Positions 5,843-56,883 are shown, counted from the first letter of the stretch. The stretch: 64,000 bases of DNA from Bacteroidales bacterium (GCA_035299085.1 DATGXG010000019.1:78783-142782); one strand, 5' to 3'. Translations and numbers: made by a program. Notes: generated by a model from the sequence alone, not told the origin.

Positions 5843-6751
5843 ATGTATCAAAGACATTTTATAACCATTCTTTTTCTTTCCGGATTTGCGATTACAATGT
5901 ACAGTCAGCAAAAGCCTCAATGGGAAATGCCGCTTTTTTTCGAAGATGCAACTGGAGCAAGGGACACTGTTTATATTGGATATGATTCTGCTGCCAGCAA
6001 TGAAGTATATGTTATAGACACTGCCTTTGATGAGGGCTGGATTAGGATTGATACTACAAAGTTCAATGCATTTTTATGGATATATCCCAGTTATCTCCCG
6101 GCAGGTGCTTATCTTCTGACCTCAGACTCTGTAAGGGTAAAAGATATATCTTCTTTCCCTTATCCATATGCGCGTATAGGTTTTACAGGTGGTAAAATGC
6201 CTATAGTTGTAAAGTGGGTCGACAGTCTACTAAATAGCCCCGCCTTACCATTTCCGGATATCTCTCCAAGGCCGAGGGCCAGAATTGACTTTTATTGTGA
6301 AAGCGGGGAACCCGGCTATATTAATTGTCCTATTGAATATGATCCAATTTCGTTAACATCCTATAATACACCGGATTTAAAATATGTGGCTTCAGATAGT
6401 TTAGTGTTTGAAGGATCTGGAAATTATAGTCCATATAAAGCTATATTTAATGTATTCTTGCAAATTGTACCCCACGATTACCTTCTAACTAGTCTTTCAA
6501 ATCAGCCGTATGCTCTTAATTGTACTATATATCCAAACCCGGTTACAAAATATCTCAACATCAGCAATCCATCCAATGATAACATAAAATTGACATTGTA
6601 CAATTTAGTTGGACAAGCTATAATTCAAAACATTTCATCGCATCTTTTAATCTCAATTGATTTATCATATTTTCAGGATGGTATTTACATTTTGAAATTA
6701 TCGAATGAAAAATATATTTATACTTCTAAAATTCTTAAAACACACAATTGA
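5843..6751 (+). CDS. Secreted protein with a type A T9SS (Por) C-terminal sorting domain
   Basis: Signal peptide, plus a C-terminus (IYPNPVTKYLNISN...LTLYNLVGQ...GIYILKLSNEKYIYTSKILK) typical of T9SS CTDs. Confidence 0.7.
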   Translation: MYQRHFITILFLSGFAITMYSQQKPQWEMPLFFEDATGARDTVYIGYDSAASNEVYVIDTAFDEGWIRIDTTKFNAFLWIYPSYLPAGAYLLTSDSVRVKDISSFPYPYARIGFTGGKMPIVVKWVDSLLNSPALPFPDISPRPRARIDFYCESGEPGYINCPIEYDPISLTSYNTPDLKYVASDSLVFEGSGNYSPYKAIFNVFLQIVPHDYLLTSLSNQPYALNCTIYPNPVTKYLNISNPSNDNIKLTLYNLVGQAIIQNISSHLLISIDLSYFQDGIYILKLSNEKYIYTSKILKTHN

Positions 6752-41025: not shown

Positions 41026-41412
41026 ATGGCAAAAAAAGAGGAGATAACAGAGCTTACCCGGGCAGAAGAAGAGGTAATGCAGATATTATGGGATATCCAA
41101 AAGGGCTTTGTAAAAAACATCGTTGAAAAATATCCCGACCCTAAACCGGCCTATAATACAGTATCTACGATTGTCCGTATCCTTGAAGCAAAAGGATTCG
41201 CAGATCACACGGCCTACGGAAAAACCCATGAATATTTTCCTATTGTGCAACGGGATGAATACCGGAAGCAGTACCTGAATAACATGCTGAAAAGCTATTT
41301 CGGAGGTTCATTCCGCCAGATGGCTTCTTTTTTTATAAAACAGGAAAAGCTTGACACCCGGGAACTGGAGGAAATCCTGAAAATGATGAATAAGGAATTG
41401 GGCAATAAATAA
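41026..41412 (+). CDS. BlaI/MecI/CopY-family transcriptional repressor
   Basis: 128-aa winged-helix protein (LTRAEEEVMQILW...YNTVSTIVRILEAKGF...). Confidence 0.9.
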   Translation: MAKKEEITELTRAEEEVMQILWDIQKGFVKNIVEKYPDPKPAYNTVSTIVRILEAKGFADHTAYGKTHEYFPIVQRDEYRKQYLNNMLKSYFGGSFRQMASFFIKQEKLDTRELEEILKMMNKELGNK

Positions 41413-41423
41413 ATGACCGGATC

Positions 41424-42671
41424 ATGACACCGTTTTTATTTTACCAGCTGAAAACAGGTTTGTGCCTGGTCTCCTTTGTTACGCTTTATTATATTCTTTT
41501 CCGCAAAGAAACTCACTATAGGTTAAACAGGATCTATCTTGTTTCTTCACTTGTTTTATCATTCATCCTGCCGCTTCTGCCGTTTCCTGAATTTAAAAAC
41601 CTGAAAGAAGGAACAATGACCACTTTCCTTCAGACAGTCACCATTTATGCGTACAATGCCGGAAAAGAAACTACTGTTGAAAAGACTCATACATCATTAA
41701 TTTCAACTGCCTATTCAGTTGTTGCCATGGTGTCGGCTTCGTGGATAGCCTGGCAATTACTTAATATGATCTTCCTTATTTTAAAAAGAGGATCCATAGC
41801 GCTGGGTAATTTCAGAATTATATCCCTGCCCCGGCGCTCCCTTTCCTATTCCTTTTTTAACCTGATATTCCTGTCGGCTTCAGAAAAAGAAGGAGAAAGC
41901 GACCAGGTATTAATGCATGAAATGGCCCATGCCCGGCAATTCCATTCTCTTGATATATTACTGATACAGATTATTAAAATATTTCAGTGGTTCAATCCAT
42001 TTATCTATTTGGCTGAAAAAGCATTGCAAGAAACCCACGAGTACCTGGCGGATGAAGCTGTATTGGAGCAGAACAACGATTCCGGCAGGTACAGGCTGCT
42101 CCTGCTTACCCAGGTTTTTGGGGTTCAACCCGGGATTTTTAGTTTGTTCAATTACTCACTTTTAAAAAAGCGTCTCTTTATGATGACAAAAGAAAAATCC
42201 CCCGACCGCAACCGGTTTAAATACCTGGCTGCGTTGCCTCTGATCATGGCCATATTGATTGTGCTCAGTTGCACAAAAAATCCGCCGCCACCACCGCCGC
42301 CACCGCCACCGCCTGTAACTGAAACAGAAGTTACACAGGTTTCAGATACTTCCAAAGCCTTTACGATAGTAGATGAAAACGCAAAATTTCAGAACGGCTC
42401 CCTGGAGGAATTTGGTCAATGGGTTCAGAAAAACATGGTATATCCTGAATCCGCTATTAAAAACAGCATTTCAGGTAAGGTTATGGTACAGTTTGCAGTG
42501 GATAAATTCGGAAAAGTGGCAGATGTAACGGTTGTCCGCAGCGCATCACCCACCTTGAGTGAAGAGGCCATCAGGGTAATACAGTCATCGCCCGAATGGA
42601 CCCCGGCCAAACTTGGAGGGAACAGCGTTAAACAGCAATTCGTGATGCCGGTAGTTTTCGCATTGAAGTAA
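41424..42671 (+). CDS. BlaR1-like M56 peptidase fused to a Pro-rich linker and one TonB C-terminal domain
   Basis: HEMAHARQFH zinc motif, 11 consecutive Pro codons (42282-42314), and a C-terminal TonB_C-like domain (GKVMVQFAVDKFGKV...). Confidence 0.85.
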   Translation: MTPFLFYQLKTGLCLVSFVTLYYILFRKETHYRLNRIYLVSSLVLSFILPLLPFPEFKNLKEGTMTTFLQTVTIYAYNAGKETTVEKTHTSLISTAYSVVAMVSASWIAWQLLNMIFLILKRGSIALGNFRIISLPRRSLSYSFFNLIFLSASEKEGESDQVLMHEMAHARQFHSLDILLIQIIKIFQWFNPFIYLAEKALQETHEYLADEAVLEQNNDSGRYRLLLLTQVFGVQPGIFSLFNYSLLKKRLFMMTKEKSPDRNRFKYLAALPLIMAILIVLSCTKNPPPPPPPPPPPVTETEVTQVSDTSKAFTIVDENAKFQNGSLEEFGQWVQKNMVYPESAIKNSISGKVMVQFAVDKFGKVADVTVVRSASPTLSEEAIRVIQSSPEWTPAKLGGNSVKQQFVMPVVFALK

Positions 42672-42757
42672 GTACATTCAAAATATACGGGGACAAGGTT
42701 TTCCTTGTCCCTCATTGGGTTTGATAAGTAGGATTCAGGTAATATAAAAACGTGAAT

Positions 42758-44407
42758 ATGACTCCCTTTTTGCTCTATCAGATCAAGGCCGGATTCTGTA
42801 TCATGGTGTTCACCGGCATTTATTTCCTGCTTTTGAGAAAAGAAACATTTTATGCGGGAAACAGGATTTACCTGGTTATTTCGGTCATTCTTTCAGCTCT
42901 GTTGCCATTGATCCGGCTACCACTTTTGCCGGCTGAAGGAGGGACAATAATTAACGGTTTTGAGGGAGCCGCAAATATTGATAATTTACCCGCGATAAAG
43001 CCTGAATCACCGACACATCAAATACCTGTTCTTTATATAGTTTACATTGCAATAGGTGTTTTGCTTCTAAGCCATCTGTTTTACCAGTTTTTTAGAATGA
43101 TGCTGATCGTGAAAAGAAACGGAAGCATAAGGCTTGGAAGATTTATAGTAGTTTCTCTTCCGATTAAATCTCATTCATTCTCCTTCTTCAACCTTATATT
43201 CATAGCATCGCCCACACCGCAGGAAGGAGAGAACGACCAGGTACTGCAGCACGAAATGGTACATGCGCGTCAGCTACATTCCCTGGATATCCTGATCATT
43301 CAATTTTTCAAAATATTTCAATGGTTCAATCCATTCATATACCTCACTGAAAAAGCCATGCAAGAAACCCACGAGTACCTGGCGGATGAAGCTGTATTGG
43401 AGCAGAACAGCGATTCCGGCAGGTACCGCCTGCTCCTGCTTACCCAGGTTTTTGGGGTTCAACCCGGGATTTTTAGTTTGTTCAATTACTCACTTATCAA
43501 AAACCGACTCAAAATGATGACTAAACAAAAATCCCCGCACCGCGCACAGCTTAAATACCTGGTTTTACTGCCACTGATCGCGGTCATGCTCTTGCTCAAC
43601 TGCACCAATAAAGAAGCTGAGGAAACACTTACCCAGGAAAACGAAAAAATCTGGGTTGGAACACCGCCTCCTCCAACCGGAAATATTACTCCCGACGAAG
43701 CCAACGCCGGAATCGATCCTTCAAAGATCACCGATGAGGATTCAACTTTTATCATGGTCGATCAACAGGCTCTTTTTCATGGGGGTGATTTAGAGAATTT
43801 CAGGGACTGGGTGCAGAAAAATGTAAAGTACCCTGAAAGTGAAATAAAAAGAGGAAATTCAGGAAGAGTAACTGTTCAGTTTGCCGTGAATTCAAAAGGG
43901 AAAGTAAGTATGGTTAAGATTCTGAAAGGAGTTTCACCTGCAATTGATGAAGAAGTGGCACGGGTTATTGCTTATTCCGACGACTGGACACCGGCCAGTT
44001 ATAAAGGGTTCCCGGTAAAACAGCAGTTTGTAATGCCGGTGATTTTTGAGTTGGAGAATGGTGTAAAAAGTACAGCGGCAAATGAAGAACAATCTTATAT
44101 TTTTGTCGAAAAACAGGCCGCATTCCAGGGCGGAAACCTTGAAACATTCAGGGACTGGGTGCAACAAAACCTCCGTTATCCCGAAACTGCTGCTAAAAAC
44201 GGGATATTCGGAAGAGTAACCATACAGTTTGCTGTCAATTCGGATGGGAAAGTATGTGATATAAAAATCATTAGGGGAGTTGCACCCTCCCTTGATGAAG
44301 AAGCCGTCCGCACCCTGCAATCTTCGCCGTTATGGATCCCGGCCGAACAGGAAGGAAAACACGTCAAACAACAATTCGTGATGCCGGTTGTATTTTCATT
44401 GGAATAG
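42758..44407 (+). CDS. Paralogous BlaR1-like M56 peptidase with two tandem TonB C-terminal domains
   Basis: HEMVHARQLH motif plus two TonB_C-like repeats (GRVTVQFAVNSKGKV... and GRVTIQFAVNSDGKV...). Confidence 0.85.
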   Translation: MTPFLLYQIKAGFCIMVFTGIYFLLLRKETFYAGNRIYLVISVILSALLPLIRLPLLPAEGGTIINGFEGAANIDNLPAIKPESPTHQIPVLYIVYIAIGVLLLSHLFYQFFRMMLIVKRNGSIRLGRFIVVSLPIKSHSFSFFNLIFIASPTPQEGENDQVLQHEMVHARQLHSLDILIIQFFKIFQWFNPFIYLTEKAMQETHEYLADEAVLEQNSDSGRYRLLLLTQVFGVQPGIFSLFNYSLIKNRLKMMTKQKSPHRAQLKYLVLLPLIAVMLLLNCTNKEAEETLTQENEKIWVGTPPPPTGNITPDEANAGIDPSKITDEDSTFIMVDQQALFHGGDLENFRDWVQKNVKYPESEIKRGNSGRVTVQFAVNSKGKVSMVKILKGVSPAIDEEVARVIAYSDDWTPASYKGFPVKQQFVMPVIFELENGVKSTAANEEQSYIFVEKQAAFQGGNLETFRDWVQQNLRYPETAAKNGIFGRVTIQFAVNSDGKVCDIKIIRGVAPSLDEEAVRTLQSSPLWIPAEQEGKHVKQQFVMPVVFSLE

Positions 44408-44480: not shown

Positions 44481-44545
44481 GATACCAAAAAATTATCTAT
44501 AATTGTGATTATATGTTTATTACTAAATTTCAAAGGGTATATAAT

Positions 44546-45907
44546 ATGACTTTTATCATAAAAACACCCTGTCGAGGTGGTATAAAACCAAGGGTATTCT
44601 TTTCTGTTTTATTATCGTTGATAGCATTATCTGTTGCATCAGCCCAGCAAAATAAGGTCGATTCGTTAATCAGGAATTACGATTACCAGGGGGCGCTGGA
44701 AGTTATTGACAGTATTTACCCGGATAGCATGGATATGAATATGCTGTATTTAAAAGCCGTGGCATTAAAATCCCTGTCAAAGTTTCCGGATGCAATTGCC
44801 TGTTATGATTCCCTTTATAAAAATGACTCTGCCAACACAAGGATTAGCATCGAAATGGCGGATTGCTATAAATCGGTTATGAATTATGACAAACCGGAGG
44901 AGTTATACATCAAGGCACTTGAGTACAAGCCGGGAAACCGCTATTTGATGCAACTGCTGGCAGGAGTGTACATGACGACGGAGCAATTCGGCAAGGCAAA
45001 AGAATGGTACCTGGATGCCTGCACAAATGATACATCCGTTTTTCTACTGAAACAAATAGGATGGTGCTGCGACAAACTATTGCAGGATTCAGAAGCAGAG
45101 TTTTACTATAAAAAAGCGATGGCCCTTGACCCTGATGATTACCAGCCCGTCTTCAGGCTCGGTAATTTATATAAAGATCAGCGCGATTATGAGCAGGCTA
45201 TCGCGGTTACCGATTCATTCCTGAACCGGCATCCTGATAACCGGGAAGTGACAAGGTTAAGCGGTTATGCCCATTACCTGAACCAGACGTTCAGGAAAAG
45301 CATCGCCCGGTTTCGGTGTTCGCTTGAATTATCCGATTCTTCGGCATTTGTTCTGAAATACCTCGGATACAGCTATTTTAAACTGGCTGAGTACCCGAAC
45401 GCCATTAAATACATGGAAAAAGTTTATGCGGTTGATTCATCGGATGCTGATCTGTGCTGGGCCCTTGGACTTGCCCATGACGTGCCTCAGAATATAAGGT
45501 ATTTTGAACGAGCCATCGATTTAGGCTTGCCGGTTCTAACTGCCATGGCCAAAGTGTACCTCGATCTGTCGCTTGCCTACACTAAAGCATGGCGCTATAA
45601 TGAAGCTCTTGAGGCGTTGAATAATGCGTTGAACCTGAAACCGGGCGACCCCGGAGTGATCTACAAAATAGCCGTTCACTACGATAACTGGATGGATGAC
45701 AAACCTTCGGCCCTTAAGTATTACAAAGAATTTATGACGACCCGTCCGGATGATTCATCTGATTATTTCATGACAGGAATATCAGTAATTAACCGTTCCG
45801 ATTATGGCCAGGCAGAAAGACGGATTAAAGACATCGAACAAACTGCTGCTTCTGTCGTTGAAGCGGATAGCCTAACCGGACCTGAGAAATTTACACTACC
45901 GGAGTGA
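44546..45907 (+). CDS. Secreted TPR-repeat protein
   Basis: Signal peptide (VFFSVLLSLIALSVASAQQ) and multiple TPR-like A-x-x-x-Y/F...A-L-x-x-x-P units. Confidence 0.65.
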   Translation: MTFIIKTPCRGGIKPRVFFSVLLSLIALSVASAQQNKVDSLIRNYDYQGALEVIDSIYPDSMDMNMLYLKAVALKSLSKFPDAIACYDSLYKNDSANTRISIEMADCYKSVMNYDKPEELYIKALEYKPGNRYLMQLLAGVYMTTEQFGKAKEWYLDACTNDTSVFLLKQIGWCCDKLLQDSEAEFYYKKAMALDPDDYQPVFRLGNLYKDQRDYEQAIAVTDSFLNRHPDNREVTRLSGYAHYLNQTFRKSIARFRCSLELSDSSAFVLKYLGYSYFKLAEYPNAIKYMEKVYAVDSSDADLCWALGLAHDVPQNIRYFERAIDLGLPVLTAMAKVYLDLSLAYTKAWRYNEALEALNNALNLKPGDPGVIYKIAVHYDNWMDDKPSALKYYKEFMTTRPDDSSDYFMTGISVINRSDYGQAERRIKDIEQTAASVVEADSLTGPEKFTLPE

Positions 45908-46969
45908 TCCTTTAACTTCAACCAGCTTTATCAGCTGGCGCACCATGATACCGTAAATCCAATCCGCTTTTGCGGAAAATCCTTTCATTAATAACATCAC
46001 ATACTTCAATTTCAGGCCACGCCCTTTCAGGGTGGAGCCGTATGCGGCCTCCTTTGCCAAAATAAAAGTACAGATGGAAGCAAGGTGCATGACCCGATTA
46101 TCCGGCTTAAATTGGGCTAAGGTGTAATCTTCGTTGAAATATTGCTTAATCAGAAGGAAGACAAGGCTTACACATCGCCAGATCCGACTGGCAGTTGCAA
46201 TATCATAAACGATTCCAAAATCGAGTGTACCCTGTTTCTGAATCAGAAAAGCTCTTACATCCATCAGCCAGGCCAGGCGCGAAAACTGGTGCAACGCACC
46301 ATGGTAACACAAATACACAAAACTGGCCTCATCCTTCATAATGTTCACCGGTGTACCGTCAAGATCATATTTCCTGAGATCTTCAAGAAAACCGGCAAAT
46401 CGCTTTTCTGTCAGGTAGGTATTCGCTCCTGGCCTGATATGTAAATCAATGGCACAGCGGTTTTCTTTATTGAAATAATGAACCTCACGCTTGGCCACCA
46501 GGAAGATCTTCCTTCGTAAATTTCCAGGGTAATGATTCAGGTTCGACTGAGTATAGCCTGATCCTGATAAAATCGCATGAACCACCAACAGATCGGTACC
46601 ATCGGTAAGCAGAATATCCAGGTCAACCGACTCTTTTAACGCCTCCCTGCCATACAGCATCCGGCTTAGCTGTGGGCCTTTGATGCACACATAACCAATA
46701 TTTTTTTCGTTCAGCATTTCGGCAATCGTCTTTAGCTCGTTCAACTGGGTGAGCGATTGCATGGCTATCTTGCGACTGTGCGCTTCAATCCGCGAAAGCT
46801 GTTCAGCAGTGAAATATCCTCTATGTTCCCGGGCAAAATGCTGAAGGTGGTACACGGTCTTATGGCGGAAACACAGGCGGATCAGGCGGTGGATGTTCAA
46901 ATCGGTTGTCTGGTGAACCGGTTGCCCTTTGGTTATTTGCAGCAACGCTTGTATTTCGGGGTCAGGCAT
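45896..46969 (-). CDS. Uncharacterised nucleotidyltransferase-family protein (PF14907-like), lasso-cluster associated
   Basis: 357 aa with KGPQLSRMLYG...ESVDLDILL, resembling the G-x-x...D-x-D nucleotidyltransferase fold. It shares an 8-nt overlap with the cyclase gene. Confidence 0.6.
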   Translation of the reverse strand: MPDPEIQALLQITKGQPVHQTTDLNIHRLIRLCFRHKTVYHLQHFAREHRGYFTAEQLSRIEAHSRKIAMQSLTQLNELKTIAEMLNEKNIGYVCIKGPQLSRMLYGREALKESVDLDILLTDGTDLLVVHAILSGSGYTQSNLNHYPGNLRRKIFLVAKREVHYFNKENRCAIDLHIRPGANTYLTEKRFAGFLEDLRKYDLDGTPVNIMKDEASFVYLCYHGALHQFSRLAWLMDVRAFLIQKQGTLDFGIVYDIATASRIWRCVSLVFLLIKQYFNEDYTLAQFKPDNRVMHLASICTFILAKEAAYGSTLKGRGLKLKYVMLLMKGFSAKADWIYGIMVRQLIKLVEVKGSLR

Positions 46970-48902
46970 TGCTTTGGTTTTCGGTGGTGGAATGGGACCT
47001 ATGGGACGAATGGGACGGTTTTTCCAGGTAGTAAAGAAGGATCATCAGGTAATCATAAAAGGCACCTGGATTTAAATAATTCTGATCATTAGGATCTCGC
47101 TTTGCCAGTTTTGTATACCATTCCGGGAATTTTGAAAAATCAAATATGCTATGCAGAAATGGTATTCCCGATGCTTTTTGTATTATTTGCAAAATTTCAT
47201 CCTTGTCGTTTACCAGGCTTTGCAATGTTTGTGGAATGGTGCCAACAGTTTTGTCATCCCTCTTTCTTATTTCTTCCGGCACAAATCCCCTGATGGCTTC
47301 ACGGAACATATACCGGTTCTTGCCATGATGTTGTTTCATCCAGGGTGGGAAGGCAAGTGCCGTTTCAACTACATCCAAATCCAGCAACGGGTACCTGTAC
47401 TCAATTCCGTATTGGGCGGCTGCCGTATAACAATATTCCATCCTTTGCGGAAGATGATCCGGCATAATACGATCAAACTGTCTTTCTGAAAGTGTATTCC
47501 TTTTTAATTTCCTAAAATTTTCTTCAAGCCTTGCCCTGAGATGATGCTTTAACGAAAATTCACTTTTTAAGGGAAAATTCGTAAACCGTTTATCCAGTAA
47601 ATCTCTAGTAAAAACACCACTTGTATGTGTTTCTGTATTGAGCAGAAACCGGAAATAATTAAGAGCTATCTTCACTGGTTTCAAAATGGTTTTTATACGG
47701 ACTCCCTTATAAAACAATTCATCACCGATTACCCTCCATTGCTTTTTTTGAATCAGTTCATTCCATGGAAAAGAAGTCCTTGCAGAAACCAATTCATCGC
47801 CGCCGAAACCGGATAACAAAACCTGTATACCGTTGCTTCCGGCTTTTTCATACAAGCTTTTGCTGAAAATATTAAAGTTCTGCTGTATAAAACAAGAGTG
47901 AATTTTCAAGCTGTGTTTTAGAATTTCAGGAATGCTTGACTGGTGGTGATCGATTCCATACCAGCGAAAAGATCCAAAATCAATCATATACTTAATAAAC
48001 TCTTTTTCATCCTTGAAATCAACCGTTCCGCTTTCAGGAAATAAGTTTGAAAAAGTGGTTATCTGCTTTCCTGACTCTTTAAGAAACTGATTTGCAATAC
48101 CTGTAACGGCAGAGGAATCCAATCCGCCGCTTAATTCTGATCCCATAACTGCAGTTGGATTACAACGTATTTGAACAGCTTCTGCAAGTATTTTCTTCAG
48201 GAGTACTATATAATCTTTCTCAGAGCGAAGTTGGATCTGCCTGGCAGGATCAGGTTTCCAGTAAGTATCAATAACAGTCTGTCCTTGTTTGTGATGTAAA
48301 TAATGACCCGGCTTCAGGCGGTAAACCGATTGAAAGGGGGTCTGATCCTTCCGGCTTTTCACTGTGATCAGGGTGTCTGTGAAATATTCAGCCCTGAGGC
48401 CGGGTTTTTGCAAAGCATACACCAGGTAACGGATTTCAGATGCAAACAGGAAGGATCCTTTATGGAATGTATAGAACAAGGGCCGCACACCCAGATGATC
48501 GCGTCCGCAAAAAATCTCACCGGTTTTACGATTAGTTATAACAAATGCAAAATCGCCGTAAAACAGGTTCATGCAAGCCGATCCATAGCGGATCCATGCT
48601 TCAAGGACAAGGCCGGCATCAGACTGCGATTCATTTTCAATTCCGAGTTTTTCACGCAGTATTGCTCTCTTGTACAACGCTGCATCGGCAATAATTATCC
48701 AGTCGCCCTTTTCATAAACAACCTGTTCCGGTACCATTAATGGGTTATTCACGATCACGGCCATTCCGAGGAAATCACCAGCCAATTCTTTGCAGATAAG
48801 TTTCCGGGGAATTACATATTCACTTGCCCGCTTCATCCTGTCAATCAATGAAGCGTCTGGTGTTGACCCTGCAGGTGCAATAATTCCGAAAACCGGGGGC
48901 AT
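46962..48902 (-). CDS. Asparagine-synthetase-fold lasso peptide cyclase (McjC-like)
   Basis: PP-loop SGGLDSS is present. The N-terminus is MPPVFGII, with no Cys2 glutaminase nucleophile. B1/B2/precursor genes lie nearby. Confidence 0.8.
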   Translation of the reverse strand: MPPVFGIIAPAGSTPDASLIDRMKRASEYVIPRKLICKELAGDFLGMAVIVNNPLMVPEQVVYEKGDWIIIADAALYKRAILREKLGIENESQSDAGLVLEAWIRYGSACMNLFYGDFAFVITNRKTGEIFCGRDHLGVRPLFYTFHKGSFLFASEIRYLVYALQKPGLRAEYFTDTLITVKSRKDQTPFQSVYRLKPGHYLHHKQGQTVIDTYWKPDPARQIQLRSEKDYIVLLKKILAEAVQIRCNPTAVMGSELSGGLDSSAVTGIANQFLKESGKQITTFSNLFPESGTVDFKDEKEFIKYMIDFGSFRWYGIDHHQSSIPEILKHSLKIHSCFIQQNFNIFSKSLYEKAGSNGIQVLLSGFGGDELVSARTSFPWNELIQKKQWRVIGDELFYKGVRIKTILKPVKIALNYFRFLLNTETHTSGVFTRDLLDKRFTNFPLKSEFSLKHHLRARLEENFRKLKRNTLSERQFDRIMPDHLPQRMEYCYTAAAQYGIEYRYPLLDLDVVETALAFPPWMKQHHGKNRYMFREAIRGFVPEEIRKRDDKTVGTIPQTLQSLVNDKDEILQIIQKASGIPFLHSIFDFSKFPEWYTKLAKRDPNDQNYLNPGAFYDYLMILLYYLEKPSHSSHRSHSTTENQSNA

Positions 48903-48941: not shown

Positions 48942-49180
48942 GTTTGAAATCGTTTGAAGTAGGGGGTGAAATCGTTTGAAGTAGTTTGAAATGATTTGAA
49001 ATTGTTTGAAAAAGTTATTTGCGACCTACTGAAAACATGGTTTTCAGCCTATTTGTGAAATTCGCTTTTAATTTTTTATTCGTTTTTAATTCGTGCATTC
49101 GTGGTTATTTTTTGTGGCTTGATTGGTTTCAGATAGTTTCAGATGGTTTGAGGTTGTTTCATATTGTTTTCGTGTTGTTT
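48942..49180. repeat. Phased GTTTGAA / GTTT(C/G)A decamer arrays in the divergent promoter region of the lasso cluster
   Basis: (G/A)TTTGA at 48942, 48952, 48974, 48984, 48994 and 49004. A second run reads GTTTCAGATA GTTTCAGATG GTTTGAGGTT GTTTCATATT ... GTTTGAG (about 49128-49185). Confidence 0.85.
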
Positions 49181-49202
49181 GAGATTTAGGTTATTTTTGC
49201 AT

Positions 49203-50114
49203 ATGCCTGATCCATCTTCATATTCTTACAAGGCCTTCGGTTTAAATATCCTTTCTCAATTCGAGGTCCCCGGTTTTCAACCTGCCTCTTTTTCAAATGC
49301 CGATGTCACCATCGAAAGCGGGCATGTACCTGAAACCATTGATCCGGTTATCAATAAGGGAGTACTCTTCCAGGCAAATGACCATGAGTTTATCCTCAGG
49401 ATTGTAGGAATAGCATCCTACTATATTAAGTACGGCACAACGATTCGCATACAACCGCAACCAAAAGCTGTAAGCAAAGATATCGCTGCTTTTCTCACCG
49501 GAACGTGTTTCGGTGCCCTGCTGCATCAGAGGAAACTATTGCCCTTGCATGCCGGTACCGTTGTGTTCAAAAACCGGTGCCTTGTATTCATGGGACTTTC
49601 CGGCGCAGGCAAATCTACCCTTGCGGCTGCATTTTTGAAAGCAGGCGCCACATTGGTTGCGGATGACATTTCAGTAATTGATTTTTCAGGCGAACGACCG
49701 GCTGTAAGGCCTGCGTTTCCGGCTATCAAGATGTGGCAGGACAGTTTGAAACACTTAGATTATGCTACAGATGGCCTTGTCAGTGTCCGCGAAGAGCTGA
49801 AAAAATTTTACATGCCTGTTCTACAATTCAGCGAAATACCTGTTCCTGTAGATACGCTTTTTATATTAAACAGCTACAACAAGCCGGATGCCCTGATCAA
49901 ATCTATTGAAGGAATGGATAAATTCCAGGCAGTGATAAGGCATACGTACCTGTTCCGTGGGATACCGAAAACAGGGCTTGAACAAAACCATTTTATACTG
50001 GCCGGAAAGCTGATCACAACCATTCCGCTTTTCATGCTGTCAAGGCCAGACAGTCATTTTAACACCGACAATCTTCTTGAGTTAATAAAGGAAAAAGCCG
50101 GTATCAATGGATGA
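49203..50114 (+). CDS. HPr-kinase-related P-loop kinase (lasso precursor kinase-like)
   Basis: YKAFGLNILS N-terminus and the Walker A motif GLSGAGKSTLAAAFLKAGATLVADD. ATG at 49203 is preferred. Confidence 0.75.
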   Translation: MPDPSSYSYKAFGLNILSQFEVPGFQPASFSNADVTIESGHVPETIDPVINKGVLFQANDHEFILRIVGIASYYIKYGTTIRIQPQPKAVSKDIAAFLTGTCFGALLHQRKLLPLHAGTVVFKNRCLVFMGLSGAGKSTLAAAFLKAGATLVADDISVIDFSGERPAVRPAFPAIKMWQDSLKHLDYATDGLVSVREELKKFYMPVLQFSEIPVPVDTLFILNSYNKPDALIKSIEGMDKFQAVIRHTYLFRGIPKTGLEQNHFILAGKLITTIPLFMLSRPDSHFNTDNLLELIKEKAGING

Positions 50115-50949
50115 TACCAAAAAAATAATATGGCTGGCTTCGTATCCGAAATCGGGTAACACCTGGTTCAGGGCATTTCTGACAGCACTTCTTAACCCGG
50201 ATTTAAAAGAAGTGGACATCAACAACATGGCACAAACTACCATTGCCAGCAGCCGGCAATTGTTTGATGAGGTTTCAGGAATTGAATCTTCCGATCTGAC
50301 TGCAGATGAGATCGATTCCCTGAGGCCGCGGATTTACAGGCAAAACGCTTTTGAATCAAATGAAGTCATTTATCACAAGATCCACGATGCCTGGGATGTA
50401 TTGCCCGATGGAACAGCCCTGTTTCCCATGGAAGCAACAAAAGGCGTGTTATATTTTATCCGGAATCCGCTGGATGTGGCCATTTCTTTTGCCAACCACC
50501 TGAATACAAGCATAGACAGGACTATAGAAATAATGAACAACCCGACTTATGCCTTCTGTGAAAAGAATAGTAAGCTATATAACCAGCTCCGACAACGGTT
50601 ACATACGTGGAGTGGTCATGTTAAAAGCTGGACTGAAGATTCAGGACTTCCCCTAATGGTGATCCGTTATGAAGACATGCTAACGGATACACTGGCCATC
50701 TTTTCAAAAGCAGTTTCCTTTATAGGTTTGGACCAATCTGAAGTCAATATTAAAAAAGCCCTTGACCTCTCTTCTTTTGAACAGCTCCGAAAGCAGGAAG
50801 AAACAAAGGGCTTTTCTGAAAAGAGCGCCAAATCGGAGCGATTTTTCAGGAAAGGCATAGCAGGCGACTGGAAGACTATGTTAAGCAAAGAACAAGTTGG
50901 CCGGATCAAGGAAGCACATAGTTTAACTATGTTAAAATTCGGGTATTAG
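50107..50949 (+). CDS. PAPS-dependent sulfotransferase-family protein
   Basis: 5'-PSB loop YPKSGNTWFRAF and 3'-PB region RYEDM...FFRKGIAGDWK. It shares an 8-nt overlap with the kinase gene. Confidence 0.85.
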   Translation: MDDTKKIIWLASYPKSGNTWFRAFLTALLNPDLKEVDINNMAQTTIASSRQLFDEVSGIESSDLTADEIDSLRPRIYRQNAFESNEVIYHKIHDAWDVLPDGTALFPMEATKGVLYFIRNPLDVAISFANHLNTSIDRTIEIMNNPTYAFCEKNSKLYNQLRQRLHTWSGHVKSWTEDSGLPLMVIRYEDMLTDTLAIFSKAVSFIGLDQSEVNIKKALDLSSFEQLRKQEETKGFSEKSAKSERFFRKGIAGDWKTMLSKEQVGRIKEAHSLTMLKFGY

Positions 50950-51009
50950 CGTAAAATACTGTTGATAAAATGTAACATTGCGCTTAAAAAAGTTGTATAT
51001 TTTCGAAAC

Positions 51010-51031
51010 ATATTCATATTTGTATGAATAT
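51010..51031. promoter_or_regulatory. Perfect 9-bp inverted repeat ATATTCATA-TTTG-TATGAATAT upstream of the pqqD-like gene; its centre contains a near-consensus -7 box (CATATTTG)
   Basis: Read directly. It ends 23 nt before the ATG at 51054. Confidence 0.4.
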
Positions 51032-51053
51032 CACCTAACCTGACCATTGACGT

Positions 51054-51371
51054 ATGGGAATTTTTACTGCAAAGAAGGAGATCGGGCCGGACACGGTGTT
51101 ACAGCGAAGGAATGATCTTTTATTCAACGAAATAGACGGGGAAATGGTAATGCTCTCAATTCATAACGGGGAGTATTATGGGATGGATAAAGTAGGTTCG
51201 AGAATTTGGAAGATTCTATCTGAACCTATAAAACTTTCTTGTCTGGTAGATAAGTTGATTTTAGAATATGAAATAAATAGAGATCAATGCTTAATTGACA
51301 CGGTTAATTTCTTGGAAAAATTACATGATAAGGCTTTAATCTTTTATGAAACAATTCCTGATAAACAATAA
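51054..51371 (+). CDS. PqqD-family RiPP recognition element (lasso B1)
   Basis: 105 aa, LLFNEIDGEMVMLSIHNGEYYGMDKVGSRIWKIL...LIDTVNFLEKL. This is the typical PqqD pattern. Confidence 0.85.
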   Translation: MGIFTAKKEIGPDTVLQRRNDLLFNEIDGEMVMLSIHNGEYYGMDKVGSRIWKILSEPIKLSCLVDKLILEYEINRDQCLIDTVNFLEKLHDKALIFYETIPDKQ

Positions 51372-51759
51372 AAAATTAAAATCTTTCATATTTTCAAGAA
51401 TTGTGGAAGTAATATTTATTTTATTGATTTTAATGTCATTATTTGTTAGATCATTAATATTTCTTTTGCCTTTAAGAACGTATAAATTTTTACTTTTTAA
51501 GCAACCTGAAATTGAAGAATCAACTTATAAAAAGTATAAAATAAAATGTTTAAACTGTGCGATTAAGAAATTTGATAAGTTGAAATTTTTAAATACATCA
51601 TGTTTTGCTAAAACAATAACAATTAAAATTTTTGCTCTCATATTTAGAATAAACAGTCTAATCGAATTAAATGTAAATACTAGAAACGAAAAAATGAGTG
51701 CACATGCTGAAATTACTTTTATTACAAAATCTAAATCCCTTTTGCTTACCTTAAATTGA
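51346..51759 (+). CDS. Lasso peptide B2 leader peptidase (transglutaminase-core-like)
   Basis: N-terminal TM-like segment, then NTSC-(33 aa)-HAEITF, comparable to the Cys...AHAW(V/I)E spacing of B2 proteins. It overlaps the pqqD-like gene by 26 nt. Confidence 0.65.
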   Translation: MKQFLINNKKLKSFIFSRIVEVIFILLILMSLFVRSLIFLLPLRTYKFLLFKQPEIEESTYKKYKIKCLNCAIKKFDKLKFLNTSCFAKTITIKIFALIFRINSLIELNVNTRNEKMSAHAEITFITKSKSLLLTLN

Positions 51760-51761
51760 TT

Positions 51762-51908
51762 ATGATGGATATTGAATTGCAAAATAAAAGAGAATGGAAT
51801 CCACCAACACTGAAAAGTCTATCAGTCAAAAAAACAGGCGGTAGTGATTCGGCTCAGTTTGGAGAAGAATCACAATATATTGATCAGGACCCTGAAAGTG
51901 GTTTTTAA
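51762..51908 (+). CDS. Candidate lasso peptide precursor (48 aa): MMDIELQNKREWNPPTLKSLSVKKTGGSDSAQFGEESQYIDQDPESGF
   Basis: Translated by hand. It starts 2 nt after the B2 stop. The leader has W-x-x-P-x-L and a Thr at the predicted -2 position. The predicted core is GSDSAQFGE..., with Gly1 and Glu9. Confidence 0.6.
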   Translation: MMDIELQNKREWNPPTLKSLSVKKTGGSDSAQFGEESQYIDQDPESGF

Positions 51909-51923
51909 ATTAACTACTTAATT

Positions 51924-54900
51924 ATGAAACTAAGATGTTCAATTAGTATTTTTTCAATTTTTATTACTGCTTTATCTTTTTCACAAGGTTGGGTCAACTC
52001 TTTGGTTATAAAAGGCTCCCAAATTGAGCCTAGATTTTCAGTAATAGACAATAATAATAACCTCATTATTTACAGTTATTTTTCTGATACTGTCTACTCT
52101 CCGTTAACTATATCGTATGGTTTAAGAGATTTATTTATAACCAAAATAAATTCCGGTGGCAGCATTCTTTGGAATAAGAGAATAGGAACTGCTAATTCAG
52201 ATGCACCTGGAGGCTTATTTGTCGATAATGATGACAATATCTATTTGACCGGTGGCTATTATTCAACGTTGAAATTTTCAACAACTGATAGTTTAAAAAA
52301 TAGTGGTAGTAGTGATATTTTTCTGGCCAAATATGATAAAAACGGAGTATTCTTATGGTCAAAAAAATTAACTTCAGCAACCACCCTGGAAATACCGCTT
52401 GACATAAAATTTGATGGGAACAATAATTTCCTTATGTCAGGTTATTTTAAGGATAGTTTGATAATCGGTGATAACCATTCTAATATTGATACTCTTTTAG
52501 GAAACACCTACAACTCACATTTTATTGCTCTATTTGATTTAAATGGAAATTTGAGCTGGTCAAAGTCTTTTTTAGGTACAAATAATTTATCTAGAATCTA
52601 CAAGGTTGGGACAAGCAGTAATGGATATTATTTTGGAGGTTATTTTGCAGGAAATTTGACTTTTGATGTAGGGACTATATCAAGTTATTCAACCAATTAC
52701 TATGACGCTTTTTTATATAAGACTGATATTAATGGACAAGGACAATGGATAAGACGTATAAGAGGTACGGCTCATGAAAATTTTCGATCATTGTCTATCG
52801 ACGAATTTGAAAATATTTACATTCTAGGGAATTATAATAGTTCGACAATATATATTGACTCTACTTCCTCAGCGATTAAAACAGTATCAGTAAATACTGG
52901 TGGATATGATACATATATTGCTAAATATAACCGAAGTGGAATCCTTCAATGGTTTCTACGAAAAGGCAGTACGGCAAAAGACATATATAATGATTTCGTT
53001 GTTCGAAATAACGTTATTTATGCAACCGGATATTTCACTGGACAAATAACTTTTCATAATGATGTCCTTACAACCAGCAGCGCAACTAATTCAGATGCTT
53101 TTGTTGCCGCATTCAATGAAATTGGCGACCCTATATCTGGGGTGAGTGTCGTAGGCACAGGCAATTACGAAGATGCCGGTACCATAGTGAATATGGATGC
53201 CAGTTCAAGGGCCTACGTGGCCGGTTACTATAAATCACAGCAAATTAAAATCGGTTCCCAAACCTACACGAGTAATAATCTTAATAAGAGCGATTTATTC
53301 TTTGCTATTTACAAACAGCGTTTTCAGGCCGTTGTCACCGATGAAGACATGGTTTCCTGCAACGGTCTGAGTGATGGAATGCTTTCTGTTACACCGTATT
53401 TCGGCAGGCCGCCATATACCTATTCATGGAGCCATAACCCGGCGCTTAATAATCCTACGGCACAAAATTTACCGGCCGGTTCTTATATCTGCACGGTCAC
53501 CGATGCCAATGACAGCATTACCCATGTAACCGGTATTGTATCGCAACCCAATCCATTTTCAGTCAATGGGGCCCTGACAAACCCGGTATGTTACAACGAA
53601 AATACAGGTGTCATCAATATTACCGTCACAGGAGGGAATACAGGTGGTTACAGTTATTTCTGGACATCACCCGACGGATCCGGAATTCAGCCGCTCATCG
53701 AGGACCAGGCAGGCTTAAGCCACGGAACATACACGGTCCGTATTCTTGATAGTAAAAATTGCGCCGATACAACTGATTTTCTTCTCACCGAACCGGCACC
53801 TTTCAATTATGAGGGCACTGCTGTCACAAAAATTTTCATTCCGCCGGGAAATAACGGTGCAATCAACTTAATTCCGCATGGCGGCACGGCACCATACACC
53901 TATTCATGGTCCGGACCCAACGGCTATACAGCAACATCCGAAGATATCGGTAACCTGAATGATGCAGGGTTATATAATCTCACTATCCATGATTCAAAAA
54001 GCTGCACGGGTGATACCACATTTACAGTTATTGATAACTTCACCTTTCAGGCTGAAATCTTTGATAAAACTGACGTCCTCTGCAAAGGTGCTGCTAACGG
54101 AACGGCAACTGTCCAGGTTTTCAATGGCACAAAACCTTATTCCTATCAATGGAGTGATGGCGTAACCCTTAATGATTCGGTACGAACCGGTATGACACCC
54201 GGAAATTATATTATTACTGTTACCGATGGTGCAATGCATACTAGTCAGGCACGTGTTACTATTACAGAACCTACATTGCCTTTGTCGGTCGTTCTTTTAC
54301 CTCAGGATCTTCATTGTTATAATGACAATTCCGGAGTTATTGATGCCACTATCAATGGAGGAACATTACCCTATTCTTATTCATGGTCCAGCGGTTACAC
54401 AGGAGAAGATCTTGTTAACGTGGCTGCTGGCATTTACACTGTTACTGTTACTGATGCCAATGGCTGCCAGGTGCAGGATACAAAAGAGATTACCCAGCCC
54501 GGCATGATGGTGGTAACTCCTGAAATAAATACTCCCATACTGTGCCATGGAAATCGTGGTGGTGTTGCTACTGTAAATGTCACTGGCGGTGTATTACCCT
54601 ATTCTTATGTATGGGATGACCGTGGCGACCAGACAACTGCAACAGCATATGACCTCAGGGCACGTACCTATCATTGTACGGTAACCGATTTCAATGAATG
54701 TTCTCAAACTGTTGACGTACCCTTACTCGAACCGGATTCACTTTATGTGGATGTGATCATTAATAATCCATCTTGCCCGGGACTGGAAGATGGCTCCATT
54801 GCTCCGACTCCTCATGGCGGAACGGGACCCGGTTACGAATACATCTGGTCGAATTCAGTCTTCCAGCGCTTTAACACCGATATTCCGGCAGGCATGTATA

Positions 54901-55955
54901 TTCTTACAATGAATGATGCCAATAACTGCGTTATTGTGGACACATTCAACCTTGCCGATCCGGATACCGTGAAAATCACATCGGTTGATGTTGCCGATAT
55001 TACCTGCCCCGGTAAAACCGATGGATCATTGACGATTCATGCCACAGGCGGATCCGGAATATATGAGTTTTCGACCGACAACGGCGATAATTATGATAAC
55101 CAGTCTGTTGCAGACAACCTGCCCTCTGGCGATTATACCGTATTGGTAAGGGACGATAAAGACTGCATTTCTGAAAACCAGCTTGCAACGATCAGTATTT
55201 CCGATACGGTAACCATTGATACAATCGATATTGCCAATGCCACCTGTAATGGAATCCATGACGGTGCGGTAACCCTTAAAGTTACCGGTGGAACAGGCAC
55301 TTACCAGTATTCAACCGACGGCGGATCAACCTTTGGCGGTGCTTCAATTCTTGCAGCCCTTGCTTCCGGTAACTACACTATCGTTGTACGCGATGGCAAT
55401 GATTGTAATTCGGAACAGTCCCTGATTACGCTGACAAACTCAGACACCATCTCAATAAGCCATATCGAATCCACCGATCTTACCTGTTCGGGACTTCCTG
55501 ACGGAACCATCACGATTACCGGGTCCGGAGGGTCAGGAGTATACCAGTATTCTATTGACGGTGGAACTACTTTTTCGGATCAACCGGCCTTCACGGGATT
55601 AAGCCAGTCTGAATACGATGTTGTCGTTAAAGATGATCATGAATGCCTTTCCGAAGAAAGCGATGTGATCCTGAATTCGCAGGACGTTTGCAGCCTTATA
55701 CTGTATAATGCCTTCACCCCGAATGATGACGGCAAGAATGATGTGTGGGATATTGAGAATGTTGCCAGTTTTCCCGATATCGTTGTGAAAATATTCAATA
55801 TCTGGGGTAAGGAAGTATTCAATTCAAAAGGCTATGATACGCCTTGGGACGGAACCTATAACGGCAATGATCTTCCCTCAGGAACCTATTATTATGTCAT
55901 CGATCCCGGAGACGGTTCCGGAATCCTGACAGGCGATGTCAGCATTGTTAAATAA
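51924..55955 (+). CDS. Giant cell-surface protein: SBBP-like beta-propeller repeats, about 13 SprB-type repeats and a type B T9SS (gliding-motility) C-terminal domain
   Basis: D(A/I)F(L/I)AKY...G..LWSK repeats. Repeated C..x..DG...(V/I)..GG..PYxYSWS units. C-terminal NAFTPNDDGKNDVW...GTYYYVI. Confidence 0.85.
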   Translation: MKLRCSISIFSIFITALSFSQGWVNSLVIKGSQIEPRFSVIDNNNNLIIYSYFSDTVYSPLTISYGLRDLFITKINSGGSILWNKRIGTANSDAPGGLFVDNDDNIYLTGGYYSTLKFSTTDSLKNSGSSDIFLAKYDKNGVFLWSKKLTSATTLEIPLDIKFDGNNNFLMSGYFKDSLIIGDNHSNIDTLLGNTYNSHFIALFDLNGNLSWSKSFLGTNNLSRIYKVGTSSNGYYFGGYFAGNLTFDVGTISSYSTNYYDAFLYKTDINGQGQWIRRIRGTAHENFRSLSIDEFENIYILGNYNSSTIYIDSTSSAIKTVSVNTGGYDTYIAKYNRSGILQWFLRKGSTAKDIYNDFVVRNNVIYATGYFTGQITFHNDVLTTSSATNSDAFVAAFNEIGDPISGVSVVGTGNYEDAGTIVNMDASSRAYVAGYYKSQQIKIGSQTYTSNNLNKSDLFFAIYKQRFQAVVTDEDMVSCNGLSDGMLSVTPYFGRPPYTYSWSHNPALNNPTAQNLPAGSYICTVTDANDSITHVTGIVSQPNPFSVNGALTNPVCYNENTGVINITVTGGNTGGYSYFWTSPDGSGIQPLIEDQAGLSHGTYTVRILDSKNCADTTDFLLTEPAPFNYEGTAVTKIFIPPGNNGAINLIPHGGTAPYTYSWSGPNGYTATSEDIGNLNDAGLYNLTIHDSKSCTGDTTFTVIDNFTFQAEIFDKTDVLCKGAANGTATVQVFNGTKPYSYQWSDGVTLNDSVRTGMTPGNYIITVTDGAMHTSQARVTITEPTLPLSVVLLPQDLHCYNDNSGVIDATINGGTLPYSYSWSSGYTGEDLVNVAAGIYTVTVTDANGCQVQDTKEITQPGMMVVTPEINTPILCHGNRGGVATVNVTGGVLPYSYVWDDRGDQTTATAYDLRARTYHCTVTDFNECSQTVDVPLLEPDSLYVDVIINNPSCPGLEDGSIAPTPHGGTGPGYEYIWSNSVFQRFNTDIPAGMYILTMNDANNCVIVDTFNLADPDTVKITSVDVADITCPGKTDGSLTIHATGGSGIYEFSTDNGDNYDNQSVADNLPSGDYTVLVRDDKDCISENQLATISISDTVTIDTIDIANATCNGIHDGAVTLKVTGGTGTYQYSTDGGSTFGGASILAALASGNYTIVVRDGNDCNSEQSLITLTNSDTISISHIESTDLTCSGLPDGTITITGSGGSGVYQYSIDGGTTFSDQPAFTGLSQSEYDVVVKDDHECLSEESDVILNSQDVCSLILYNAFTPNDDGKNDVWDIENVASFPDIVVKIFNIWGKEVFNSKGYDTPWDGTYNGNDLPSGTYYYVIDPGDGSGILTGDVSIVK

Positions 55956-55959
55956 CGTC

Positions 55960-56883
55960 ATGAACACCACTATGAAGAACATAAAAATATATCACTCCGT
56001 TCTGACAGTACTGGTCATCATGCTGTTCGTGACATTTTCAGCTAAGGTAGAGGCTCAGCAGATCCCCAACTTCAGCATGTACAACATGAATCATTACCTT
56101 GTGAATCCGGCTGCAACAGGCATAACCGACCGGCTGCCGGTTTCCTTGTCATACAGGAAGATTTGGGCGGGAATGACCAATGCACCTTCTGTACAATATC
56201 TTTCGGCGAATACCCAGGTTGCAGATAACATGGGTGTCGGAGCACGGCTCTTTAATTTCCAGGCTGGACCGTTGCGAAAAACTGGTCTTGAAGGAACTTA
56301 CAGCTATCATATTGACGTAGGCACAGAGGGAAAACTATCATTCGGACTTTCACTCCTTTTTTACCAGTTCAAGCTCAGCAAATCGGAGATGTTTGTTAAA
56401 GATATTACCGATGAGTTAATCATGGGAGATGAACAGATGTTTGTTCCTGATGCCGGAATCGGCGTATATTATTACGGCCCGAACTATTACGCCGGTATTG
56501 CAGTGCCTCAACTGTTCCAGCGTAACATCGACCTGAAATCGGATGCCATCCTGCAGCAAAAACAGGTAAGGCATTATTATATTCATGGCGGTTATATTTT
56601 TGATGCCGGAACCGATTTTAAAATAGAGCCTTCCCTGCTGCTGAAATTTGTTGAAAGCGGCATCTTCCAGGCAGATGTTAACGCCCTTGTCACTTATAAA
56701 GATATGGTGAATTTCGGCTTATCCTACAGAACTTCCGAAGCACTTTCCTTCCAGGTCGGCTATAAGAACCCGGATATTTTTATCGGCTATGCTTATGATC
56801 TCATCCTTTCAGGTATGAAAAGCAACACCTGGGGATCGCACGAGATATTGTTCACGTATACGCTGGATAATTTCCTTAAATAG
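55960..56883 (+). CDS. PorP/SprF-family type IX secretion membrane protein
   Basis: QQIPNFSMYNMNHYLVNPAATG N-terminal signature. It lies directly after a type B CTD cargo gene. The start is 55960 or 55972. Confidence 0.85.
   Translation: MNTTMKNIKIYHSVLTVLVIMLFVTFSAKVEAQQIPNFSMYNMNHYLVNPAATGITDRLPVSLSYRKIWAGMTNAPSVQYLSANTQVADNMGVGARLFNFQAGPLRKTGLEGTYSYHIDVGTEGKLSFGLSLLFYQFKLSKSEMFVKDITDELIMGDEQMFVPDAGIGVYYYGPNYYAGIAVPQLFQRNIDLKSDAILQQKQVRHYYIHGGYIFDAGTDFKIEPSLLLKFVESGIFQADVNALVTYKDMVNFGLSYRTSEALSFQVGYKNPDIFIGYAYDLILSGMKSNTWGSHEILFTYTLDNFLK

Follow-up and report, generated by a model that had tools for sequence, protein, structure and literature searches.

The stretch of DNA analysed here, called the window throughout, comprises 64,000 nucleotides of a Bacteroidales MAG and contains a gene cluster in which a kinase (K), a sulfotransferase (ST), B1, B2 and a small peptide (A) are encoded in that order on the plus strand, with the genes for a cyclase (C) and a nucleotidyltransferase (NTase) arranged divergently. 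The cyclase (46962–48902, minus strand) is a 646-residue asparagine-synthetase-like protein with PF00733 and GATase_7 domains, and among NCBIfam models it scores highest with NF033535, lasso isopeptide cyclase (285 bits, below the cut-off of 525). The 357-residue nucleotidyltransferase (45896–46969, minus strand; PF14907, E=5e-38) belongs to the PsmN type of tailoring enzyme and is found in 53 related loci. The sulfotransferase (50107–50949, plus strand; 280 residues; PF00685, E=1e-26) is of the PAPS type, carries the motifs PKSGNTW and RNPLDVAIS, and occurs in 49 related loci while being genuinely absent from five. Library scans and the adjacent genes revealed no ABC exporter in the cluster.

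The precursor kinase (49164–50114, plus strand) is HprK-like, with matches to HprK_rel_A/B and Hpr_kinase_C; an ATG at 49203 would give a 303-residue form, as called on the related locus L001. Every position with at least 95% identity among 58 homologues is preserved in it, namely H129, the P-loop G144xxG147xG149K150, D167 and D193. H129, K150, D167 and D193 are consistent with the His-Lys-Asp-Asp motif of lasso kinases (PMC9266682), the two invariant Asp residues being the presumed counterparts of those in the motif. In the PDB, the kinase matched PEP carboxykinase alone, through the P-loop. Judged by these intact signatures, the cluster enzymes look functional.

B1 (51054–51371, plus strand) is a 105-residue discrete RiPP recognition element (RRE) of the PqqD family (PF05402, E=2e-14; NF033536, 82.1 bits against a cut-off of 80). 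Its closest solved relative is PbaB1 of Paenibacillus alginolyticus (PDB chain 9x90_B, E=1.3e-15), for which contacts with a bound leader have been described (PMC13381572), and alignment to 9x90 allowed the pocket residues to be compared. Those lining the Trp pocket of PbaB1 (I44, L65, Y69 and V71) are V, L, Y and I in the window protein, those of the Pro pocket (I48 and F83) are I and F, and those of the Leu pocket (Y39, L41, L87 and L92) are Y, M, L and L. B1 differs from PbaB1 at E75 and Q79, which hydrogen-bond the Trp and are replaced by Q and D; these two positions are not strongly conserved (PMC13381572). With pocket residues that are identical or conservatively replaced, B1 probably binds its leader through a Trp-accepting hydrophobic pocket, a reading supported at the sequence level.

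The B2 leader peptidase (51346–51759, plus strand; 137 residues) is a highly diverged transglutaminase-like Cys protease that matches NF033537 only weakly (E=0.05). Nevertheless, in ten other loci the ORF that precedes the precursor gene is a phmmer match to it (E<1e-4), and the conserved Cys (SCFAKT) and His (AHAE) are both present. It lacks an acidic residue at a position where many relatives have D or E, and its C-terminus is approximately 8–10 residues shorter. No similarity to the B2 of its nearest relative, the cluster at locus L006, could be detected; the window B2 resembles those of more distant loci. Because the protein is so diverged, shorter at the C-terminus and without D or E at that position, its activity is not assured. 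A short ORF follows this B1 and B2, with the cyclase gene divergent, and this context agrees with the lasso precursor reading of the initial annotation.

The short ORF, precursor gene A (51762–51908, plus strand), comprises 48 codons plus stop and encodes MMDIELQNKREWNPPTLKSLSVKKTGGSDSAQFGEESQYIDQDPESGF. Its ATG lies 2 nt past the TGA of the B2 ORF, as originally described, and its coordinates and translation are likewise as given then; an alternative TTG start lies at 51756. Its stop codon ends 15 nt before the ATG of a 1343-residue downstream ORF, and A occupies the whole gap between B2 and that gene. The G+C content is approximately 30% over positions 51001–53000 (27–32% per 500-nt interval), and at this local composition a stop-free run of 49 codons is expected by chance at approximately 1.3% per frame position. 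A search of the PDB with the peptide sequence returned only noise.

Homologues of A were found in many other genomes. Word-index protein searches starting from the A peptide or from B2 retrieved nothing outside the window, and single-protein locus searches with B1 and with the cyclase gave nothing useful, whereas an alignment-based scan covering one genome per species yielded 80 related loci. Homologues of the cyclase numbered 1388, many of them in Bacteroidales MAGs. In the nearest cluster, L006, the cyclase is 78% identical, the gene order is the same, and a 47-residue ORF follows B2 (MEETDFNNDKTNWQTPTLIVLKFNKTLGGPSAGSTEDKYENNPVSGS). An iterated profile search of the small ORFs of the loci then recovered homologous peptides in approximately 45 loci from different species; most of these precursors lie directly 3′ of a B2-like ORF of 130–160 residues, and a minority directly 3′ of the cyclase gene. 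The initial annotation had made its reading depend on the conservation of such syntenic short ORFs after B2, and they are present in most related clusters.

One further close homologue, P0126 (MADLEQNKKPWNNPEIFSLDFNKTEGRDDFDFGEDSDYLPIDPSDGT), came from an exhaustive phmmer search covering 1.84 billion representatives. Three giant proteins (3600–5193 residues; phmmer E 1e-10 to 1e-5) were also retrieved and were rejected as chance matches, their scores being sums of 7–11 weak matches to Ig-like repeats (PSLTSGSV..TGDDSTQFNFSV.YVDQD).

To the conserved family the window contributes a single member. When 43 syntenic small ORFs from other Bacteroidales genomes, excluding the window ORF and that of L006, were combined into a profile and the 837 small ORFs of the window were searched with it, A scored 32.2 bits (E=2.9e-9) and the runner-up 6.1 bits, which identifies A as the one precursor candidate in the window. 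An identical peptide has been gene-called on four independently assembled metagenome contigs. The exact sequence is also on record in NCBI nr, where its relatives are named "hypothetical protein"; the earlier description of the ORF as unannotated is therefore true of the 60-residue ORF track and of nothing beyond it. The peptide is short and a Pfam scan gave no match, features that a chance ORF in an AT-rich spacer would share, but homology, synteny and motif conservation over approximately 45 species refute such an origin, to which we attach practically no probability. Homology is a stronger argument here than the stop-codon statistics. The 48-codon ORF is thus confirmed as a real and conserved gene of an uncultured Bacteroidales bacterium, and its interpretation as the precursor gene of a paeninodin-like lasso peptide is supported by the evidence that follows. 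We consider it very probable that the surrounding cluster converts A into a class II lasso peptide.

The predicted leader (51762–51839, plus strand; 26 residues, MMDIELQNKREWNPPTLKSLSVKKTG) contains the motif W12-N-P-P15-T-L17 followed by T25, which places Trp at −15, Pro at −12, Leu at −10 and Thr at −2 relative to the proposed cut. A therefore has both the RRE-binding motif, defined as [Y/W]xxPx[L/V/I/F/A] (PMC13381572), and the Thr at −2 that is an established recognition element of lasso leader peptidases (PMC10368454). The register of −15/−12/−10 is exactly the numbering of PbaA (W-15/P-12/L-10), the paeninodin-like leader crystallised with PbaB1 (PMC13381572; PDB 9x90), although the cores of the two peptides are unrelated. 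Throughout the family of 45, neither P(−12) nor T(−2) varies, and W(−15) is kept in at least 90% of the peptides. These results agree with the original assignment of a W-x-x-P-x-L motif in which Trp stands for Tyr. They also dispel the accompanying worry that the motif lies too close to the Thr, since a Trp-to-Thr distance of 13 is the norm in the family (44 of 45 members) as well as in the PbaA register.

Cleavage between the leader and the predicted core (51840–51905, plus strand; 22 residues, GSDSAQFGEESQYIDQDPESGF) would leave a small N-terminal residue, Gly1, and an acidic residue within positions 7–9, Glu9, as is usual for lasso precursors. The core has a net charge of −6, with six acidic residues and no basic ones. 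The Glu eleven residues after the Thr, at core position 9, is at least 90% conserved by alignment and present in 35 of 45 members when a fixed register is used, and 42 of the 45 have an acidic residue at core position 8 or 9. The invariant Pro and Thr, together with Trp and Glu9 at 90% conservation or above, support the cut after T-G and the Gly1–Glu9 isopeptide ring that were proposed at the outset.

One feature counts against this assignment: core position 2 is Ser in A and Gly in at least 90% of its relatives. The column after the proposed Gly1 is in fact better conserved than position 1 itself, which is Gly in only 29 of the 45 members and S, D, T, N or V elsewhere. The same precursor could be cut one residue later, with Thr at −3, to give a core beginning SDSAQFGE... 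and an eight-membered Ser1–Glu8 ring in A; across the family, cleavage ahead of the near-invariant Gly would yield a uniform Gly1–Glu8 ring. Paeninodin, however, starts with A-G and has an Ala1–Asp9 ring. The later cut would also leave Ser or Arg at position 1 in A and in its closest homologue P0126, whereas a cut one residue earlier leaves Gly in both. Moreover, the PbaA numbering of W-15/P-12/L-10 agrees with T(−2) and with the 13-residue spacing from Trp to Thr, and a later cut would be at odds with Thr(−2) as the recognition element of the leader peptidase (PMC10368454). We regard the later cut as unlikely and retain the T-G site with a nine-residue ring. For the corresponding lasso, Tyr13/Ile14 is the likely plug, an aromatic residue being present at core positions 11–16 in 39 of 45 members. 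Tyr13 thus survives from the original list of plug candidates, while Phe22 is an unlikely plug because it is not conserved.

The only NCBIfam match of A is the paeninodin family, NF033524 (16.7 bits, E=0.0044, below the cut-off of 27), a model that is also the sole NCBIfam family matched by 18 of the 45 relatives, at E≤1 (best E=1.8e-5). The resemblance to paeninodin suggested previously therefore holds at this sub-threshold level, and A appears to be a distant relative of that family. Like the precursor of paeninodin (PadeA from Paenibacillus dendritiformis C454), A has a WxxPx[L/I] leader with Trp, Thr at −2, a predicted nine-membered ring closed on an acidic residue at position 9, and an acidic D/E/P-rich tail. 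Paeninodin-like clusters also share the split B1 and B2, the HprK-like kinase, the PF14907 nucleotidyltransferase and sometimes a sulfotransferase. The differences are that the ring acceptor is Glu here and Asp in paeninodin, that A lacks the C-terminal Ser characteristic of the family, that the cluster has no ABC exporter, that A follows B2, and that the host is a Bacteroidales MAG. Paeninodins were described as restricted to Bacillota in a 2026 study (PMC13381572).

An RRE, an HprK-like kinase and an NTP transferase are common to paeninodin-like clusters and to those for linear polyphosphorylated (LPP-like) peptides (PMC13381572), and A could in principle be a precursor of the linear type rather than of a lasso. 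LPP leaders, however, have the sequence YxxPxVLxHQxIxFETxxS with Tyr at −16, are cut by a signal-peptidase-like enzyme and come from clusters that lack a cyclase (PMC13381572), whereas the window leader has Trp at −15 without the extended motif, a cyclase and B2 are present, and the ring-forming Glu is conserved. A linear product of this kind is highly improbable, and the lasso assignment is followed below.

The C-terminus of A is the clearest departure from known systems. The peptide ends in E-S-G-F, its last Ser (core Ser20) being two residues from the end; the initial annotation had remarked on this ending in place of a terminal Ser, and it is a real departure, with Ser the final residue in 30 of the 45 family members. 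The kinases of paeninodin and pseudomycoidin clusters act on the linear precursor and (poly)phosphorylate its C-terminal Ser, a residue that is "extremely conserved" in kinase-containing clusters and serves as the specific recognition element of the kinase (PMC9266682, PMC8498205). Since A ends in S-G-F, the kinase target would have to be the subterminal Ser20 or another Ser. Precedents exist for internal residues, as BsfK and LppK both act on Ser3 (PMC13381572, PMC10368454). BsfK, from Bradymonas sediminis, is an HprK-like kinase from a lasso cluster that modifies this non-C-terminal residue of BsfA with the help of B1 (PMC10368454). The window core likewise has Ser2 and Ser4, but the Bsf leader contains YxxPxL with Ile at −2, and in the Bacteroidales family Ser is not conserved at core positions 2–4 but is conserved at or near the C-terminus.

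The unusual ending might instead mean that A, although a genuine family member, belongs to a decaying or altered pathway: the terminal Ser would have been lost, B2 would have degenerated, and the peptide would be either not matured or matured without phosphorylation. The S-G-F terminus itself, a shortened B2 without the acidic third residue, and related MAGs with clearly shortened precursors and fragmented downstream genes (L030, L032 and L037) all fit this explanation. However, fifteen of the 45 family members, A included, have one to four residues after the last Ser (examples are SGNN, SETN, SLEE, SPHGL, SPQ, SP, SGF and SDGT); they come from different species, and the kinase is kept in all fifteen clusters, which suggests a tolerated variation of the C-terminus and not a decaying pathway. 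None of the seven cluster ORFs is disrupted, and the kinase retains all invariant residues and shares 82% identity with its counterpart in L006, a cluster whose peptide has a terminal Ser. B2 keeps its Cys and His, and the B2 proteins of L013 and L010 also lack the acidic residue. The recovery of the identical peptide from four samples argues against decay as well. We consider a decaying or altered pathway improbable and favor a functional cluster with a variant C-terminus.

The sulfotransferase has a less obvious substrate. The conserved Tyr at core position 12 or 13, which lies in an acidic context, was examined as its target, and this idea was weakened by the distribution of the gene. Loci L009, L015, L021, L025 and L029 are genuinely without a sulfotransferase, K being followed directly by B1, and keep the Tyr at core position 12 or 13; at least eight sulfotransferase-bearing clusters have no Tyr there. 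Because the five clusters without the enzyme retain the residue, it is unlikely to be an obligatory sulfation site. No sulfated lasso peptide was found in the searchable literature.

A maturation pathway is proposed in which B1 binds W(−15)xxP(−12)xL(−10) of the leader in a PbaB1-like hydrophobic cleft and brings the peptide to B2, the Cys protease, for cleavage after T(−2)-G(−1). The ATP-dependent cyclase would then join the amine of Gly1 to the side chain of Glu9 around the tail. The predicted product is a strongly acidic 22-residue lasso with a calculated monoisotopic mass of 2373.95 Da and Tyr13/Ile14 as its likely plug. As in the paeninodin and pseudomycoidin pathways, the HprK-like kinase may phosphorylate a Ser of the linear precursor, either the subterminal Ser20 or another, and the PF14907 enzyme may decorate the phosphate; the sulfotransferase would add a further modification. 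The pairing of the kinase with a PF14907-type enzyme resembles that of PsmK and PsmN in the pseudomycoidin cluster of Bacillus pseudomycoides, where the two (poly)phosphorylate and then glycosylate the C-terminal Ser, with the PF14907 enzyme adding hexoses (PMC9266682, PMC8498205). The window cluster differs in that A has no terminal Ser and that a sulfotransferase is present in addition.

Comparison with L006 revealed a hypervariable low-GC island at 51230–52556, which begins within B1, takes in its 3′ part together with B2 and A, and extends approximately 630 nt (approximately 210 codons) into the downstream gene. There is no blastn similarity to L006 inside the island, whereas the flanks, up to 51229 and from 52557, are 79.8% and 77.7% identical. 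Its G+C content is 27–32%, against approximately 44% elsewhere, and it is low in G+C in both the window and L006. The pattern is repeated at the protein level, with 67% identity to L006 for B1, no match for B2, 37% for A and 74–89% for the flanking genes. The cassette either evolves fast or has been exchanged.

The gene downstream of A (51924–55955, plus strand) encodes the 1343-residue protein mentioned above, which contains SprB repeats and a CHU_C sorting domain of type IX secretion (T9SS), both identified with Pfam. It is followed by a gene (55936–56883, plus strand; PF11751, E=1.5e-72) for a PorP/SprF-family outer-membrane partner of T9SS cargo, which is found in 18 loci. In 28 of the 42 loci with enough sequence, including loci with rearranged flanks, the ORF immediately 3′ of the precursor encodes a homologue of the SprB-like protein, and the gap between the two genes ranges from −76 to +291 nt (L007–L084). 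No terminator-like site was found between A and the SprB-like gene. The SprB-like gene is probably co-transcribed with A and may be linked to the peptide in function. A scan for sigma-70 promoters gave 11 sites against 10.9 expected, Bacteroidetes promoters being outside the model used by the scan. The wider neighborhood is equally syntenic, with purD in 16 loci, a 1038-residue protein and a deacetylase in approximately 40, and BlaI/BlaR1-like genes; inherited gene order could therefore explain much of the T9SS association. A literature search found no mention of lasso peptides together with type IX secretion.

The upstream flank contains genes for a BlaI-like repressor (41026–41412), a BlaR1-like protein (41424–42671), a further BlaR1-like protein with M56 and TonB_C domains (42752–44407), which is present in approximately 19 related loci, and a TPR protein (44513–45907), present in eight. 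These genes may be regulators of the cluster or just conserved neighbors.

A bolder reading of the locus, which we think doubtful, is that this uncultured Bacteroidales lineage has rewired a vertically inherited paeninodin-like cluster. The kinase target would have moved away from the C-terminus in about one third of species, B2, the precursor and the N-terminus of the neighboring protein would form a fast-evolving cassette, and the peptide would be co-transcribed with and functionally tied to the SprB-repeat beta-propeller cargo and SprF, which would replace the ABC exporter. If this is true, either the kinase accepts a subterminal Ser or C-terminal trimming occurs, and the tie between peptide and T9SS could be that of a ligand, of a partner in export or display, or of a diversifying recognition pair.

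No lasso peptide of the Bacteroidales family has been characterized, and its precursors appear in public records only as "hypothetical protein". The Trp(−15) leader and the set of kinase, nucleotidyltransferase and sulfotransferase point to paeninodin-like chemistry beyond the Bacillota. The family offers natural test cases both for the role of the cluster sulfotransferase and for the behavior of "C-terminal-Ser-specific" kinases towards a subterminal Ser. In genome annotation, precursors overlooked by the curated model would be found with a profile of the 45 peptides.

Several related loci depart from the common arrangement. Shortened precursor ORFs without the WxxP part were observed in L030 (7048–7146), L032 (7055–7156) and L037, for example MELILTLFKLDFKNTFGGDTSATYEDTILDPAF. 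In MAGs of this type the SprB-like genes are fragmented too, into pieces of 188–388 residues, and the combination points to decay of the locus in these genomes or to problems of assembly. L081, from a Draconibacterium MAG, carries two identical copies of the precursor ORF (4870–5028 and 5981–6139) that are 1.1 kb apart, which may reflect a duplication or an assembly repeat; the cyclase match in this locus covers an unusually long stretch.

Outside the Bacteroidota, the precursor gene is usually located after that of the cyclase, with no SprB-like gene next to it. A W(−15) precursor ending in Ser was found in L080 (3399–3545), which belongs to the cultured gammaproteobacterium Pleionea sp. CnH1-48 (WP_253043789.1). 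Precursors of the same kind are present in L052, L057, L059, L078 and L086, from Desulforapulum, Acidobacteria, Clostridia and Rhodothermales MAGs.
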